A stretch of DNA of 64,000 nucleotides from Candidatus Omnitrophota bacterium (GTDB lineage Bacteria; Omnitrophota; Gorgyraeia; Zapsychrales; JAKLDJ01), in NCBI GenBank assembly GCA_022703585.1, contig JAKLDJ010000003.1, forward strand, positions 206,250-270,249, read 5' to 3'. The notes under the pieces are model-generated. The model searched no databases, was not told where the DNA came from, and saw nothing but the letters and a program-made list of their open reading frames with translations. Below are positions 53,902-59,470 of this stretch, piece after piece. The position numbers and the translations under genes were made by a program. Each line of letters opens with the position of its first letter. Positions within the stretch are counted from its first letter, which is position 1.

Positions 53902-54381
53902 ATGGCCCTTAAACATACCGAGAATTTCTTTGTGCGCACTCTTCTTAGTAAGGTTAAGCTTAGTGAGATTATGGTGGAGGATGTGATCGCGCTAAACGTC
54001 AATGACCCTTTTAGCCGGGTCGAGGAGCTAATGAGGGAGAAGCATATCCGTCATATCCCGATCGTGGATGAACATTTCAAGCTGGCGGGTATTATTACCC
54101 AAAGGGATTTGTACCGCATCCAGCCGCCCCGCAAGGATGAAGAGGGAAACTGGTTTTACGATAAAGAGATGCTGGACAAGAATATTCTAAGGCATGTGAT
54201 GACAAAAAATCCTTTTACCTTAAGCCCCGAAAACACCGTGGCCGAAGCCCTGTTGGCTATGGTGGATAGAAAATACGGCTGTATTCCTATTGTTGATAAA
54301 AGTCAAACCCTGTGCGGTATCGTGACCCAGATTGATATTTTAAGAATAGGGGCACAGATCATAAGGGAGGGGAAGACGTAG
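53902..54381 (+). CDS. CBS-domain pair protein
   Basis: Two CBS motifs (HIRHIPIVDEHFKLAGIITQRDL and GCIPIVDKSQTLCGIVTQIDIL). Confidence 0.85.
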   Translation: MALKHTENFFVRTLLSKVKLSEIMVEDVIALNVNDPFSRVEELMREKHIRHIPIVDEHFKLAGIITQRDLYRIQPPRKDEEGNWFYDKEMLDKNILRHVMTKNPFTLSPENTVAEALLAMVDRKYGCIPIVDKSQTLCGIVTQIDILRIGAQIIREGKT

Positions 54382-54388
54382 GTTTTTT

Positions 54389-54468
54389 AGCTCTGAGCTC
54401 TGAGCCAGGAGCTATGTGCTGTGAGCTCACAGCTGCTCAAAGCTCCCAGCTCCAAGCTCAAAGCTCAA
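54389..54468. repeat. array of at least 8 AGCTC/GAGCT pentamer words
   Basis: tAGCTCtgAGCTCtgagccaggAGCTatgtgctgtgAGCTCacAGCTgctcaaAGCTCccAGCTCcaAGCTCaaAGCTCaaaac. Confidence 0.7.
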
Positions 54469-54473
54469 AACAT

Positions 54474-54615: not shown

Positions 54616-54945
54616 ATGAAAAAGGGCGACTTGGAAGTCGTCGAGCAAAAGATATTTTTGCTGCGAGGTCAGAAAGTCATGATTGACCGGCATTTGGCCG
54701 AACTTTACGGTGTTAGGACAAAAGTTCTTGTTCAGGCCGTCAAGCGCAACAAGAGAAGGTTTCCTAAGGATTTTATGTTCCAACTGACGGGTCAGGAATT
54801 TAAGAGTTTGAGGTCACAATTTGTGACCTCAAACCGCGGTGGCAGCCGGTACCGGCCGTATGCCTTTACGGAACAGGGTGTCGCCATGCTCTCAACTGTC
54901 TTACTGACTTTTTCCTTTCGAATATTCAATTTGGAAGGTATCTAA
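54616..54945 (+). pseudogene. ORF6N-domain protein, N-terminal fragment (gene interrupted)
   Basis: [76 protein letters not shown] matches the ORF6N family. Family homology is lost after ...AMLSTVL and the frame hits a stop. Confidence 0.7.
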
Positions 54946-55002: not shown

Positions 55003-55263
55003 AGGAAAAGGCCAGTAAATAGCGAGCGTGCCATTGGCGTGAATATTGTTATTATGCGCGCTTTTGTCAAGCTGCGCGAGATATTCTCGGCGCATAAAGA
55101 GCTCGCCCAGAAACTGGCTGAACTTGAGCGAAAGGTTGAAAGTCACGACGCCCATATCCAGGGGATCTTTGAAGTTATCCGTAAACTGATGGCAGTGCCT
55201 GCCGAGAAACCAAAAAGGACAATCGGGTTTCATCCGTCTCCTGCTGACCGGTCAGGAATTTGA
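55003..55263 (+). pseudogene. ORF6N-domain protein, C-terminal fragment
   Basis: (RP)VNSERAIGVNIVIMRAFVKLREIFSAHKELAQKLAELERKVESHD...PKRTIGFHP is the canonical ORF6N C-terminal half. It is in the same frame as the N-fragment. Confidence 0.7.
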
Positions 55264-55295
55264 GGGTTTGAGGTCACAAATTGTGACCCCAAGCC
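55243..55295 (+). repeat. about 52-bp partial duplicate of the ORF6N internal segment (54782-54834), a remnant of a second ORF6N copy
   Basis: ctgaccggtcaggaatttgagggtttgaggtcacaaattgtgaccccaagcc versus ctgacgggtcaggaatttaagagtttgaggtcacaatttgtgacctcaaacc. Confidence 0.65.
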
Positions 55296-55360
55296 ACCTT
55301 CCAGAAATTAATTGACTAAAATCCCCCAGAGGCGTAGCCTAAGGGCTAGTATCCATAATA

Positions 55361-55470
55361 AGGGACGCTCTTTTGGCTCAATAGAAGTCTGTCCCTTTCC
55401 CAGGAAAAAGGGACACACTTCCATAGCACGGAAAGAGCGTCCCTGATACAGACGTGTCCCGGGAAATCAA
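55361..55470 (+). promoter_or_regulatory. GGGAC/GTCCC-rich nested inverted-repeat element in the leader of the PEP-CTERM gene
   Basis: 13-bp perfect inverted repeat AGGGACGCTCTTT (55361-73) / AAAGAGCGTCCCT (55432-44) enclosing hairpin GTCCCTTT...AAAGGGAC (55391-55414). Two more GTGTCCC words downstream. Confidence 0.5.
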
Positions 55471-55537: not shown

Positions 55538-56284
55538 ATGAAGAAGATGTTTATTGCGCTTGGTTTCTTAGTTGTAGTTAATTTCGTGATAGCTTCAAAA
55601 GCTAATGCGGCCTTAATCGGCTATTGGAATTTTAATGAAGGTTTAGGGGATGTTGCTAATGACAGCTCTGGTTTTGGAAATGACGCAACTGGATTAAATT
55701 CAAGCTGGATAGCTGGTAAGCATGGTTACGGTACGAATAGCAGTAGTATTATAGTTCAACCGGATGCGTCACTTCTCCCTTCTTCAAGCCTCACTATTTC
55801 GGCCTGGGCTAGAATTGATGAATTTAATGGCCTTCAGCGTAGAATTGCGGAAATGGAATATCGCTACGGGCTTCTTTTTAATCCGCCGAATATTGATTCT
55901 CAGACGGCATTCTATCTGAATTTAAATTCGGATAATTACTCTTTCGAATATCAGGATATTCCGTTAGGGGAATGGTTTCATACGGCAGTGAGTTGGGACG
56001 GAAATATCGCACAGTATTATATCAACGGAATTCCCGTAACTCCTGTTGTTGCCGATGCAGTCATCAATCAAAATGGTGGCATCCCGCTTTTCATGGGGGC
56101 AGAGGGTTATTCTCTGGACGAAGTTCGGATTTATAATAATGCTTTGAGCCGGGAAGAAATTCTTAGAGATATGAATTTCGACAGCACTGTCATTCCAGAG
56201 CCCACAACCCTTTTTCTCTTGGGCAGCGGTATTTTAGGAACGCTTTTTAGCAGAAGAAAACTTTTCAAAGCAAGAAGGTGCTAG
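55538..56284 (+). CDS. PEP-CTERM sorting-domain protein with LamG/concanavalin-A-like lectin domain
   Basis: Signal peptide (MKKMFIALGFLVVVNFVIASKANA). LamG-type start LIGYWNFNEGLGDVANDSSGFGNDATGL. C-terminal VIPEPTTLFLLGSGILGTLFSRRK, i.e. PEP motif, TM and basic cluster. The ORF-track start at 55454 is rejected in favour of the MKKM start. Confidence 0.8.
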   Translation: MKKMFIALGFLVVVNFVIASKANAALIGYWNFNEGLGDVANDSSGFGNDATGLNSSWIAGKHGYGTNSSSIIVQPDASLLPSSSLTISAWARIDEFNGLQRRIAEMEYRYGLLFNPPNIDSQTAFYLNLNSDNYSFEYQDIPLGEWFHTAVSWDGNIAQYYINGIPVTPVVADAVINQNGGIPLFMGAEGYSLDEVRIYNNALSREEILRDMNFDSTVIPEPTTLFLLGSGILGTLFSRRKLFKARRC

Positions 56285-56297
56285 GCGCTCTTAAAAG

Positions 56298-56358
56298 GGA
56301 CAGGTCAGTTGTCCCGCCACCCCCGTCGCATGGAAGCGCAACGGGGATTAGCGGCGGG
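56298..56358 (+). terminator. nested GC-rich hairpins downstream of the PEP-CTERM gene (possible terminator or structured RNA)
   Basis: GGGACA-ggtcagt-TGTCCC, then CCCCGTCGC-atggaa-GCGCAACGGGG, enclosed by TCCCGCC...GGCGGGA. There is no clear U-tract. Confidence 0.35.
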
Positions 56359-56449
56359 ATTAACTCGGCGGCCTCGTTTAAGGATATTTAGAAACGGTCC
56401 TAGAATTCTTATGGGTACTTGTTTTTAGGGTTTAAATGAGGAGGAAACA

Positions 56450-56803
56450 ATGAAGAGAGTTAGAATTAAATGCTCACCTTTTACATCGAATTTAGAAGTG
56501 GATGATGATCTTGTATTAAAGTTACATGTGCCATATTCTGATAAGGAGGTAACGATACAAATCAACCCCAATATTCAAGACTACAAGGAGAAGAATGATA
56601 ATCCGGGGGCGAAGATTCGCCAAACGATTGTAACGACTCCAACCGATGAAACCCGAACGCTGAAATTTGACTTTAATAACATGAGAGCACAAAAAATTGT
56701 TGTTGGTGAAACGGCATATAAAATTGAATTGCTTGAAATCGGCAAAGAAGAGGCTGAAGGGCAAAGATTTCCATACTTCGATTTTTCTGTTAGTCGGGAA
56801 TAG
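56450..56803 (+). CDS. hypothetical protein (117 aa, soluble, no recognisable domain), AT-rich
   Basis: Good RBS (GAGGAGG). Open frame with no family match I can recognise. Confidence 0.55.
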   Translation: MKRVRIKCSPFTSNLEVDDDLVLKLHVPYSDKEVTIQINPNIQDYKEKNDNPGAKIRQTIVTTPTDETRTLKFDFNNMRAQKIVVGETAYKIELLEIGKEEAEGQRFPYFDFSVSRE

Positions 56804-56890
56804 AATCTTGAAATCAGGCGGTCCTAAAATTACGGGGACAGCTCTGGTATAACCGCTTGATGTCGTAAGGGATATCCAGAAACGGTCTAA

Positions 56891-57622
56891 ATGGTTAATA
56901 TTGGTTTTCTTCTTAATCTAATTAGTAGATTTATAAATATTGATAGCTTTCAAATCAGCTTATATTTCTTATCAGCACTCGGCCAGTCAATGGCAGCGCT
57001 ACTCGCCATAGGTGGAATTTTTGCAATTTATCAATTCCAAAGAATTGAAAATCGCATCGAACACACATGTAATGCGTTTAAGAACTACATTCGGGTAGCT
57101 GATCCCGATGAGCCAGGCAAATGGTTGAATAAAGATGTTATATCCCATCTATTACGTCGTTTTAAAGAGAAGAAAGATGGAGATTCTAACGATCTGCAAG
57201 ATGCGTTTATCGATTATTTTAATGAGCTAGAAGCCCTTGAGGACTTTCGTATAAAGTTGAGACAAGAACTACTGTCCCCAACCATATTAATTACTATAGT
57301 ATTTGGATTAGCATTATTCGCATTGATTGAAATGCCTCCCAATGGCTATGATATATTTACTTTATTTGGAATATTCTTACTTGGGGCTGTAGCAGTTCGC
57401 CGCTTAATTAGTTATATCTTTATGGCTCTTGGTGACCCCGATTCTAAGATTTTTAATAATCCTATCACTTCAGGGGATGAAGAGCTGAGTGAGCTCCGCA
57501 AGGTATATCTAAGAGAACGCGGACGGGAGATGCTTAAGAAATATGACATTTTACGAGCGAAATTGAAAATAAATTTGAAGAAACTTACCACCAAGATAGA
57601 GAAAGAAGAGAACGGTTCCTAA
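56891..57622 (+). CDS. hypothetical membrane protein (243 aa, about 3 TM helices, then a charged coiled-coil C-terminus), AT-rich
   Basis: TM segments at about residues 20-47, 129-147 and 155-176. Lys/Glu-rich helical C-terminus. No known family. Confidence 0.55.
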   Translation: MVNIGFLLNLISRFINIDSFQISLYFLSALGQSMAALLAIGGIFAIYQFQRIENRIEHTCNAFKNYIRVADPDEPGKWLNKDVISHLLRRFKEKKDGDSNDLQDAFIDYFNELEALEDFRIKLRQELLSPTILITIVFGLALFALIEMPPNGYDIFTLFGIFLLGAVAVRRLISYIFMALGDPDSKIFNNPITSGDEELSELRKVYLRERGREMLKKYDILRAKLKINLKKLTTKIEKEENGS

Positions 57623-57726
57623 AAAAGGGATAGCGTGATTATAGGAAAAACGGGACAATGCCCTTTTAGGCCGAATCAAGTAATGTATCGCAGGAATTAG
57701 AATGTTCTATTAACCTAAGCAAACTA

Positions 57727-59163
57727 ATGAAAAATACAAAACCAAAGGTATTTATTTCTTATAGTTGGAGTTCTCCGGGACATCAAATGCGTGTAAAGCA
57801 ATGGGCTGAGCAACTCATTGCTGATGGGATAGATGTTGTTCTGGATATTTATGATCTCAAGGAGGGACATGATAAGTTCGCGTTTATGGAAAGAATGGTC
57901 ACAGATAAAGATGTAACCCATGTCCTTGTAATTTGTGACAAAGTGTATGCAGAAAAATCTGATGCAAGAAAAGCTGGCGTTGGAACAGAGTCACAAATTA
58001 TTTCTAAAAAAGTTTATGAAAGAGTTGATCAATCGAAATTTATACCAATTGCTTGTGAATTTGCAGAGGATGGCAATCCTTATTTGCCAGTTTTCCTGAA
58101 ATCTAGAATTTGGATAGATTTTTCTTCCTCTCAGGCAGTAAGCGACAATTGGGAGAAGCTTGTTCGGCTAATCTTTGGTAAGCCGTTACATGAGAAGCCA
58201 AAACTTGGAAAGCCGCCCGTCTACATAACAAGCGATATAGCGGTTCCATCAAGTCCAGCAACAATTAAATTTAATACTTTTCGCCAGGCACTACTTCAGG
58301 GCAAAATAGGTCTTTCACTGTACAGAAATGATTTCTTATCTGCATGTATTGAGTATATCGATTCGCTTCGAACTAGGGAGAGACCTGATGTCGATTCTCT
58401 AGGAAAAAAGGTTCTTGAGGATTGCACGAAACTAAAACAAGCGAGAAATCAGATTGTTGATTGGATTTTGATAGAAAGTGGAATATCGCCAACCGAAGAA
58501 TTTTCAGAAGCACTCCTAGCATTTCTAGAAGAATTGCGTGAACTAAAATCCAGGCCAGCAGAACTTAACTCATGGAATGATGCTTGGTTTGAAGCACACG
58601 AATTATTTGTTTATGAAACCTTTCTTTATATTATCGCCGCTCTTTTGAAGTCTGGTGCATATAAAATATTACACGAGGTTTTTACTTCACATTATCTTTG
58701 CCTAATACACGGAGAACAGAAATTTGATACCTTTGATTGTTTCTATGGCTACTCTAAAACTCTTCAATCGGAATTGGCTCCAGAGGGCAAGAGGCTTTAT
58801 AGTCCTGCTGCTGAACTTATAAAAAGACAAGCAGATCGCTTGGATGTTCCATTTGAGTCTGTAATAGAAGCGGAATTGCTTGTGTTGTTAATGGCGTTTC
58901 TGATTCCCAATGTTAGATGGTATCCACAGACATTGCATTATTCTTCTTATGGCAAGGAATTCCTCTTTTTTATAAGAGCAACGCGACATAAGAATTTCTT
59001 AAAACTGGCTCAAATAACAGGGATTAATGATGTTAATCAGCTACGTGAGGCAGTAAAAGAAGGACATAAAAGACTTGGAGTGGACCAGTGGCACGATTTT
59101 CATCTTCAGGACCGCTCATTTTGGTCATCTATGAATATGGATAATTTAGATACGTTGAAATGA
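57727..59163 (+). CDS. SEFIR/TIR-like N-terminal domain protein with about 320-aa alpha-helical C-terminal domain of unknown function
   Basis: N-terminus KVFISYSWSSPGHQMRVKQWAEQLIADGIDVVLDIYDLKEGHD...HVLVICDKVYAEKSDARKAGVGTESQI...KFIPIACEF follows the bacterial SEFIR/TIR_2 pattern (kVFISYShd...Wv..la..L...G..V.lD..dl..G). The C-terminal domain is unassignable. Confidence 0.65.
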   Translation: MKNTKPKVFISYSWSSPGHQMRVKQWAEQLIADGIDVVLDIYDLKEGHDKFAFMERMVTDKDVTHVLVICDKVYAEKSDARKAGVGTESQIISKKVYERVDQSKFIPIACEFAEDGNPYLPVFLKSRIWIDFSSSQAVSDNWEKLVRLIFGKPLHEKPKLGKPPVYITSDIAVPSSPATIKFNTFRQALLQGKIGLSLYRNDFLSACIEYIDSLRTRERPDVDSLGKKVLEDCTKLKQARNQIVDWILIESGISPTEEFSEALLAFLEELRELKSRPAELNSWNDAWFEAHELFVYETFLYIIAALLKSGAYKILHEVFTSHYLCLIHGEQKFDTFDCFYGYSKTLQSELAPEGKRLYSPAAELIKRQADRLDVPFESVIEAELLVLLMAFLIPNVRWYPQTLHYSSYGKEFLFFIRATRHKNFLKLAQITGINDVNQLREAVKEGHKRLGVDQWHDFHLQDRSFWSSMNMDNLDTLK

Positions 59164-59264
59164 GAAAAACGTGCCAATCACAAAATAGTGACAGGTAGAC
59201 TGAGACAATATAACTTATGACCACCTGTGTGTTGGTTGAAAATAAAGTCTATTTGCGCAGGTTA

Positions 59265-59470
59265 AGAGCAATAACCAATAACCAAGAAACAAGCCCAGAT
59301 TGCACGCTGTAAGTTAAGATACAATAACCAAGAAACAAGATACAAACAAATTTCAATGCCCAATTACCAAACACCAACCCTGTTTCTGTTTGATTATTGA
59401 GGCGTTTGTTATTTGGGCTTTGTTTGGTTATTGTCTCTTGGTGTTTGGTTATTGTCTGTGCTGTTTGTTG
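59265..59470. repeat. about 200-bp mirrored palindrome built from AATAACCAAGAAACAAG words (left arm) and their complements (right arm)
   Basis: Left: caataaccaataaccaagaaacaag, acaataaccaagaaacaag, aagccca. Right: tgggctt, tgtttctgtttg, tttggttattgtct x2. Confidence 0.7.

Follow-up and report, generated by a model that had tools for sequence, protein, structure and literature searches.

The closest described relative of the locus analysed here is bSEFIR, a published single-protein system that acts by depletion of NAD+ (Millman 2022; Osterman 2024). A single SEFIR gene protects B. subtilis from phi29, the D40A substitution abolishes this defence, and SEFIR homologs have been found in 460 genomes spread over more than 20 phyla, Methanosarcina included (10.1101/2022.05.11.491447). 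Phage-triggered NAD+ depletion together with phage protection is known only for the Bacillus homolog (10.1101/2022.05.11.491447), and capsid mutants escape the validated SEFIR homolog (10.1101/2022.08.27.505566). The selection rule for bSEFIR in the methods of Millman et al. (10.1101/2022.05.11.491447) is an N-terminal SEFIR domain that outscores TIR. The SEFIR domain of B. cereus has been solved in isolation (PDB 5Y8E/5Y8F, Yang et al. 2018), a structure that is silent on the C-terminal domain. Thoeris and other TIR NADase systems share with bSEFIR the TIR-superfamily fold and an NAD+-centred abortive infection, but Thoeris combines its TIR sensor ThsB with a separate ThsA effector (SIR2/SLOG or Macro) and a signalling nucleotide, whereas in bSEFIR the reported NADase activity is that of the SEFIR domain. 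The eukaryotic SEFIR proteins, comprising the IL-17 receptors and Act1/TRAF3IP2, are unlike bSEFIR in that they serve as adaptors by means of SEFIR-SEFIR contacts and have no known NADase activity.

Here, we report a bSEFIR gene in an uncultured Omnitrophota genome and describe the genes that surround it. In the window, by which we mean the whole 64 kb stretch of DNA analysed, three consecutive open reading frames of 117, 243 and 478 codons are found on the forward strand: gene 1 (56450-56803), gene 2 (56891-57622) and gene 3 (57727-59163). The original prediction had placed three reading frames of these lengths here and had proposed them as a candidate for a new defence system that could not be mapped onto Thoeris, CBASS, Pycsar or a retron, with a TIR-like, a membrane and a small protein as its components. 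Our analysis supports a different reading with high confidence, namely a small, horizontally acquired island of the defence type that holds a solo bSEFIR gene and two independent passenger genes, genes 1 and 2. The island extends over about 55.5-59.5 kb, and the sole identifiable system within it is the stand-alone bSEFIR gene at 57727-59163.

The last of the three genes had been considered assignable to no family, which proved wrong. The PADLOC bSEFIR profile PDLC03957 matches the gene 3 protein at full length (E=5.4e-98, with residues 1-476 aligned to positions 35-384 of the 412 in the profile), and phrog_11745 does so with E=3e-144. In Pfam, SEFIR (55.4 bits, E=1.1e-14, residues 6-124) scores above TIR_2 (47.6 bits, E=2.8e-12), so that the protein has the N-terminal SEFIR outscoring TIR by which Millman et al. 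selected their homologs. The 'Sefir domain protein' of B. cereus, 5Y8E/5Y8F, aligns to residues 4-159 (E=3.5e-38), and the N-terminal 150 residues of gene 3 share with it the motifs VFISYSW, VxLD, GHD and GVGTE. The earlier assignment of this N-terminal domain to the SEFIR/TIR-like type of antiphage NADases is borne out, as is the motif KVFISYSW...DVVLDIYDL on which it was based and which scores as both SEFIR and TIR_2. Among the eukaryotic proteins of the same Pfam family, Act1 gave a weak match in sequence (9OT1, E=0.005). Over 1,600 homologs with a length near 477 amino acids were found across phyla at 65-78% identity, and gene 3 has the standard length and architecture of the family, without an additional domain. 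Judged by its sequence, gene 3 is an unexceptional example of bSEFIR, the single-gene anti-phage system already described. It has in common with that system the N-terminal SEFIR scoring above TIR, a long and conserved C-terminal domain and a conserved Asp that is probably the one of the interface, as well as its nature as a solo gene with a patchy spread over phyla, plasmids and prophages. It differs from the validated Bacillus protein in that it is a member of a very conserved subclade of 477-aa proteins, resides in an uncultured Omnitrophota genome and has a predicted activity. Its identity to the Bacillus plasmid homologs, among which the validated protein is counted, is only about 30%, and its NADase activity and role in defence are therefore predictions from the family. 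Thoeris was rejected as an assignment, as no ThsA-like gene is present (genes 1 and 2 being without a PADLOC, Pfam or NCBIfam match) and gene 3 matches bSEFIR and not ThsB. The database gene call for gene 3 leaves out 20 residues of the protein and with them the first strand of the SEFIR domain.

Two domains can be told apart in the gene 3 protein. The SEFIR domain, a predicted NAD+ glycohydrolase and oligomerisation module by comparison with Pfam SEFIR and 5Y8E/5Y8F, covers approximately residues 6-150 (57742-58176, forward strand). In an alignment of 23 diverse homologs, D40 and the GVGTESQI motif (E88) were invariant. D40, in the motif VVLD, aligns with the Asp of VILD in the B. cereus SEFIR and is probably the counterpart of the residue mutated in the validated protein of Bacillus sp. 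NIO-1130. The remaining domain of about 320 amino acids (approximately residues 160-478, 58204-59160, forward strand) is conserved throughout the family with many invariant columns, and it had no significant Pfam match and no PDB match by sequence; it is the presumed phage sensor. By analogy with the published system, this C-terminal domain would sense an infection cue, upon which the N-terminal SEFIR domains would associate through the conserved Asp interface. The associated domains may then cleave NAD+ into ADP-ribose and nicotinamide, and the loss of NAD+ would starve the phage and abort the infection.

Conservation of the three genes as a unit, which the original prediction had proposed as a check, was examined in 111 loci, of which 85 carry a homolog of gene 3, 7 one of gene 1 and 19 one of gene 2. 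A second member of the triplet was present in none of the 85, none of the 7 and none of the 19, and no pair of the three families was thus found together, an outcome that the original prediction itself had named as refuting its proposal. The gene-1 loci represent 5 distinct contexts and the gene-2 loci about 7, which are small samples. Around bSEFIR, searches of 73 genome loci by tblastn and phmmer retrieved no relatives of gene 1 or gene 2, and there was no conserved partner of any kind, the largest neighbour family occurring in 5 of the 73. Even the closest bSEFIR relatives, at 74-77% identity, have quite different neighbours, among them IS200 with a type II restriction-modification (R-M) system, genes of a conjugative element, and a group II intron. 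Relatives were located on 76 plasmid records, in temperate phages, on a conjugative element carrying a TIR gene and beside a type II R-M system with IS200. The three genes do not constitute a new three-gene system, because gene 3 is a known solo bSEFIR and genes 1 and 2 are absent beside its relatives. Genes 1 and 2 are rather regarded as neighbouring passengers, because each of their families recurs independently in other accessory or defence islands.

Gene 1 encodes a small, soluble and beta-rich protein, as first suggested; its AF2 model (pLDDT 84) is all-beta with 10 strands. Its 24 homologs are 42-85% identical and AT-rich relative to their own contigs. No match was obtained in Pfam, NCBIfam, PADLOC or PHROGs, structure comparison returned generic fold matches only, and neither a scan of viral contigs nor tblastn of plasmids gave any match. 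Four of the five distinct contexts of gene-1 homologs directly adjoin known defence genes, these being a type I R-M system with RadC, an MmeI-type R-M system with PLD-SNF2, a complete AbiEi/AbiEii pair and a ResIII helicase with Schlafen, while the fifth (L005) is not defence-related. Some homologs also adjoin a primase, a recombinase or IS elements. No common upstream partner was found for the gene-1 homologs, the sole exception being a marginal match of 27% that links two loci (E=0.002-0.003), and no downstream DNA was common to the gene-1 loci. The family of gene 1 is real and conserved, small and so far uncharacterised, and gene 1 is no partner of bSEFIR.

The same holds for gene 2, whose family is likewise real and conserved, small and uncharacterised, and which is no bSEFIR partner either. 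Its protein was correctly described as a membrane protein with three transmembrane (TM) segments, since hydrophobic stretches are found at about residues 22-46, 128-146 and 157-179, followed by a long, amphipathic C-terminal helix (residues 197-240), and its AF2 model (pLDDT 91) is all-alpha. A word-indexed homolog search returned the query alone, and it required an exhaustive HMMER search to recover the family of 49 distant relatives. Matches were absent from Pfam, PADLOC, NCBIfam, PHROGs and the PDB, the latter searched also with the family profile, and tblastn against plasmids and phages found none. DUF4760 (PF15956) was rejected, with 15.4 bits against a gathering cutoff of 25 and a match in only 1 of 18 family members. 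The 967-aa protein P0146 was dismissed as a domain fusion, as it appears to be a gene-2 homolog with a low-complexity insert and is uninformative. The gene-2 homologs are found in other islands, all without SEFIR, and the neighbours of the relatives include PDC-S15 (FRG), a SIR2-like gene, AbiTii with Schlafen, an MNT/HEPN-type pair and an SNase with a Dam-type methyltransferase.

The base composition sets the island apart from its surroundings. At 57-59 kb the GC content drops to 0.375-0.38, compared with about 0.47 in the whole window, and GC3 is 0.36 in gene 1, 0.33 in gene 2 and 0.30 in gene 3 against 0.49-0.61 in the flanking housekeeping genes, by both of which measures the stretch is more AT-rich than its flanks, as had been pointed out. 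The gene upstream of gene 1 (55538-56284, forward strand), encoding a PEP-CTERM/LamG-like secreted protein (Pfam Laminin_G_3 E=1.7e-19, PEP-CTERM E=7e-6), has a GC3 of 0.38 and is a member of the same AT-rich accessory stretch. Of 72 loci compared, 67 have a bSEFIR gene that is AT-richer than the flanking DNA (median -0.078), and AT-richness, being a trait of the bSEFIR family, is therefore not evidence for a joint arrival of the three genes. Repeats flank the stretch on both sides. At the left edge an array of AGCTC words (about 54378-54470) and a split ORF6N (KilA-N-like) gene are found. The right edge is marked by an imperfect palindrome, roughly 190 bp long and composed of CAATAACCAAGAAACAA-type words, which lies between the bSEFIR gene and the Memo gene (59264-59457). 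The palindrome contains the inverted repeats I1 and I4-I9 and folds into a long hairpin (z=-4.2), and its words have no other occurrence in the window. Integrase, transposase and tRNA genes were not found at the borders, and Rfam and tRNA scans of the island gave sub-threshold noise only and no tRNA. The description of the stretch as an accessory island of the defence type is upheld.

Within the island, the word AGAAACGGTC occurs in exactly two copies in the 64 kb, whereas two or more matches were obtained in none of 100 shuffles. The word falls within an 18-nt direct repeat, GGATATnnAGAAACGGTC, at 56382-56399 and 56870-56887 on the forward strand, and the two copies bracket gene 1. The sharing of an upstream word by genes 1 and 2 is therefore real, while the co-regulation read from it is weakly indicated, because the spacing to the start codon differs, being about 50 nt for gene 1 and 3 nt for gene 2. 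Local duplication explains the repeat at least as well as a common operator. A further candidate explanation, in which AGAAACGGTC is a piece of a mobile gene-1 cassette, was rejected, as the word is absent beside gene-1 homologs elsewhere and the few matches at other loci are at chance level.

If the three genes did belong together after all, the Omnitrophota bSEFIR would have recruited one or both of its neighbours into one operon-encoded system particular to this lineage, in which the 3-TM protein might be a membrane effector or anchor and the beta protein a sensor or regulator. We consider this highly improbable. The genes are adjacent, on one strand and alike in their low GC3 (0.30-0.36), the 18-nt repeat lies 5' of both gene 1 and gene 2, and no convincing intrinsic terminator was found between genes 1, 2 and 3, so that, by the sequence, co-transcription and a functional link restricted to the lineage may exist. 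However, only gene 1 has a clear (and strong) Shine-Dalgarno sequence of its own, the genes are separated by gaps of 87 nt (1-2) and 104 nt (2-3) without translational coupling, and the repeat is unequally spaced from the two start codons. Co-occurrence was zero in the 111 loci, including those of the relatives at 74-77% identity, and bSEFIR acts as a single gene, of which the protein in the window has the standard length and architecture.

Somewhat less doubtful, yet still improbable, is that the stretch is the cargo of an eroded mobile element and that genes 1 and 2 are remnants without a role in defence, the one perhaps a small structural protein and the other a membrane protein. Against this, both reading frames are intact and their families conserved, and neither integrase, transposase nor tRNA is seen at the borders, although the split ORF6N gene and repeat arrays to the left, the long palindrome to the right, the low GC3 throughout and the primase, recombinase or IS elements beside some gene-1 homologs are in line with it. 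Such erosion is compatible with a functional bSEFIR in gene 3. Of greater weight, though still less likely than not, is the possibility that gene 1 and/or gene 2 are undescribed defence or defence-modulating genes in their own right (a single-gene system, a regulator or an anti-defence factor) and only island-mates of bSEFIR. The defence genes adjoining four of five gene-1 contexts and several gene-2 contexts point in this direction, as do the conservation and confident folds of both families and the AT-richness of the gene-1 homologs relative to their contigs. Set against these are the character of the argument, which is guilt by association from few loci and without background statistics, the absence of a catalytic motif and of an informative fold match, the gene-1 context that is not defence-related, the absence of both families from the phage and plasmid records searched, and the small size of the families, which are possibly limited to a narrow lineage.

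The main value of the reading preferred here, a solo bSEFIR with two independent passengers, is one of correction, in that what seemed to be a system combining a TIR-like, a membrane and a small protein is the published bSEFIR beside two unrelated neighbours. It also places bSEFIR on record for the Omnitrophota, whose biology has seen little experimental work. The gene-1 and gene-2 families, which recur in defence islands of uncultured bacteria, are candidates for defence-gene screens. If they are independent defence genes, the island would hold up to three separate defence functions.

Gene 3 (57727–59163, + strand, 478 aa) belongs to the bSEFIR family. It matched PADLOC bSEFIR (PDLC03957) over its full length (residues 1–476, E=5.4e-98), so that the original prediction that no family could be assigned to it does not hold, and the SEFIR/TIR pattern read at its N-terminus was recovered by Pfam with SEFIR (residues 6–124, E=1.1e-14, 55.4 bits) ahead of TIR_2 (E=2.8e-12, 47.6 bits). 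A SEFIR score above that of TIR is the criterion of Millman et al. for bacterial SEFIR genes (10.1101/2022.05.11.491447). A profile built from 23 homologs of gene 3 matched the SEFIR domain structure of B. cereus (5Y8E/5Y8F) with E=3.5e-38 and human Act1 weakly, and gene 3 matched phrog_11745 with E=3e-144. D40 (VVLD) and E88 (GVGTESQI) are invariant in the alignment, and D40 falls opposite the Asp in the VILD motif of the B. cereus structure. The SEFIR gene of Bacillus sp. NIO-1130 alone protects B. subtilis from phi29, and this defence is lost on D40A mutation (10.1101/2022.05.11.491447); D40 of gene 3 is probably the counterpart of the mutated residue. The C-terminal domain that follows is conserved and matched no known fold in Pfam and PDB profile searches.

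The family counts more than 1,600 matches, nearly all about 477 aa long and 65–78% identical, in Verrucomicrobiota, Chloroflexota, Nitrospirota, Planctomycetota, Proteobacteria, Bacteroidota and one Methanosarcinales archaeon, and is also carried by 76 plasmid records and temperate phages; SEFIR homologs have been reported in 460 genomes from more than 20 phyla (10.1101/2022.05.11.491447). The consistent length of the homologs supports the 478-aa start. The public gene call (P0026) is 458 aa long, starts at M21 and omits the first 20 codons (57727–57786) and with them PKVFISYSW, which is invariant and forms strand one of the SEFIR domain; its precomputed Pfam list contains TIR_2 and lacks SEFIR. 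Among 80 genomic loci collected for their bSEFIR relatives, the sole other one from Omnitrophota, in Candidatus Zapsychrus exili, is 47% identical to the window copy, whereas copies in other phyla are up to 70–78% identical. Horizontal acquisition of gene 3 agrees with these identities better than vertical inheritance does.

As originally predicted, gene 3 is the last of three consecutive + strand reading frames, following gene 1 (56450–56803, 117 aa) and gene 2 (56891–57622, 243 aa). They are separated by 87 and 104 nt, and a canonical Shine-Dalgarno sequence is found at gene 1 only. The AT-richness of the stretch is likewise evident: GC falls from about 0.47 in the window to 0.375–0.38 over 57–59 kb, and GC3 is 0.36, 0.33 and 0.30 in genes 1, 2 and 3 versus 0.49–0.61 in the flanking CBS, Memo, aroQ, pepP and efp genes. 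A gene for a PEP-CTERM/LamG-like secreted protein upstream of gene 1 (55538–56284) resembles the three with a GC3 of 0.38, so that the AT-rich accessory stretch begins 900 bp or more ahead of the module as first delimited. Such composition is no proof of joint arrival, since in 67 of 72 loci the bSEFIR gene is AT-richer than the DNA flanking it (median −0.078) and gene-1 homologs are AT-rich relative to their own contigs.

The original prediction took the three genes for an undescribed defence-type system and named their never co-occurring elsewhere as evidence against it. Neither gene 1 nor gene 2 was found by tblastn and phmmer in the 80 bSEFIR loci, whose identity to gene 3 reaches at most about 71%. 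The neighbours of bSEFIR differ in size, strand and transmembrane content, and when 356 neighbour proteins from 73 loci were clustered the biggest family occurred in just five. Because the genomic loci topped out at this identity, the closest metagenomic relatives (74–77%) were added; one has an IS200 transposase on one side and a type II restriction-modification (R-M) system on the other, one has ArdC and a DUF1883-TIR gene as neighbours on a conjugative element, and one adjoins a group II intron. Conversely, a SEFIR gene was never seen near homologs of gene 1 (five distinct contexts) or gene 2 (about seven), nor were these homologs ever close to one another. Pairwise overlap is zero in 111 loci (85 with gene 3, 7 with gene 1 and 19 with gene 2), the very outcome that had been named as refuting the system, and genomic distribution gives no support to genes 1–3 as a unit. 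Of the original interpretation, the SEFIR domain stands and so does the island of defence type; the three-gene system does not.

Genes 1 and 2 are both real genes. Homologs of gene 1 close a series of defence genes on one strand in four of the five contexts, the remaining one being unrelated to defence; the four comprise a type I R-M system with RadC and a PD-(D/E)xK protein, PLD-SNF2 with Bro-N and MmeI-type R-M, a complete AbiEi/AbiEii pair, and Schlafen with a ResIII helicase. They are typically last in the run (L001, L003, L005, L093 and L094), and the non-coding gap that comes next is unusually long (234–823 nt); no common sequence was detectable among these gaps. Relatives of gene 2 occur with PDC-S15 (FRG), a SIR2-like protein, AbiTii and Schlafen beside IS21, with an MNT/HEPN-type pair, with SNase and a Dam-type methyltransferase, with Schlafen, or with a ClpP-like SDH protease. 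One relative, called as 967 aa (P0146), has gene-2-like N- and C-terminal parts, and the low-complexity read-through of about 500 aa between them is probably an insertion; another relative (L101:1681–2282) appears frameshifted. A Schlafen/AlbA_2 protein recurs near homologs of both genes in otherwise unrelated islands, with an extra HATPase_c_4 in L003/L004, L094 and L086–L088 and as AlbA_2 alone in L101. The two families look like independent defence-island passengers. That either or both are independent, undescribed defence-island genes we consider rather unlikely, the argument being guilt by association over few loci.

The word shared upstream of genes 1 and 2, AGAAACGGTC, had been taken as a hint of co-regulation. 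It does occur exactly twice in the window (two or more matches in 0 of 100 shuffles), at the heart of the two copies of an 18-nt direct repeat that lie on either side of gene 1 (56382–56399 and 56870–56887). The repeat lies about 50 nt from the start codon of gene 1 and 3 nt from that of gene 2, and the 18-nt word does not accompany gene-1 homologs elsewhere; a shared operator is no likelier an explanation than a local duplication bracketing gene 1. Together with a third, partial copy just past the gene 1 stop codon, the sites are at 56382–56403, 56818–56833 and 56870–56890. The partial copy reads GCGGTCCTAAAATT, versus ACGGTCCTAGAATT, and CGGTCCTA is confined to these two places in the 64 kb. 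The copies may be the scar of an insertion or duplication that put gene 1 there.

Repeats border the island on both sides, as had been described. On the left, the CBS-domain gene gives way at once to an array of AGCTC/GAGCT-type words (approximately 54378–54470), which has no Rfam match and whose words are absent elsewhere in the window. Next comes a split ORF6N-domain gene (Pfam E=1.6e-36), with an N-terminal frame at 54616–54945 and a C-terminal coiled-coil frame at 55039–55263. A 57-nt direct repeat of 86% identity, containing the perfect palindrome TTGAGGTCACAA/TTGTGACCTCAA, has one copy within this gene (54779–54835) and the other just past it (55239–55295). GGGACA/TGTCCC words abound in an inverted repeat just upstream of the PEP-CTERM gene (55358–55447; 41-nt arms with 80% complementarity around an 8-nt loop), and words of the GGGACA type reappear in intergenic gaps at about 56297–56315, 56835 and 57652. 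On the right, the gap separating bSEFIR from Memo holds an imperfect palindrome (59264–59457, about 190 bp) composed of CAATAACCAAGAAACAA words. Its fold is one long hairpin, at −64.7 kcal/mol and z=−4.2, and it has no further copy in the window and no Rfam family match.

Thoeris was excluded by the absence of a ThsA-like partner at the locus. Gene 3 has every feature of bSEFIR membership that is testable by sequence and, like its relatives, stands as a solo gene; the locus is a further occurrence of bSEFIR, in a MAG of Candidatus Omnitrophota, a poorly studied phylum. Phages escape SEFIR through capsid mutants (10.1101/2022.08.27.505566). We infer that bSEFIR is a self-contained abortive-infection protein whose C-terminal domain would sense a late infection cue tied to the capsid, upon which the SEFIR domains would oligomerise, by way of the interface that holds the Asp, and break NAD+ down to ADPR and nicotinamide by hydrolysis. 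The window's protein would share this NADase activity, this trigger and the defence phenotype.
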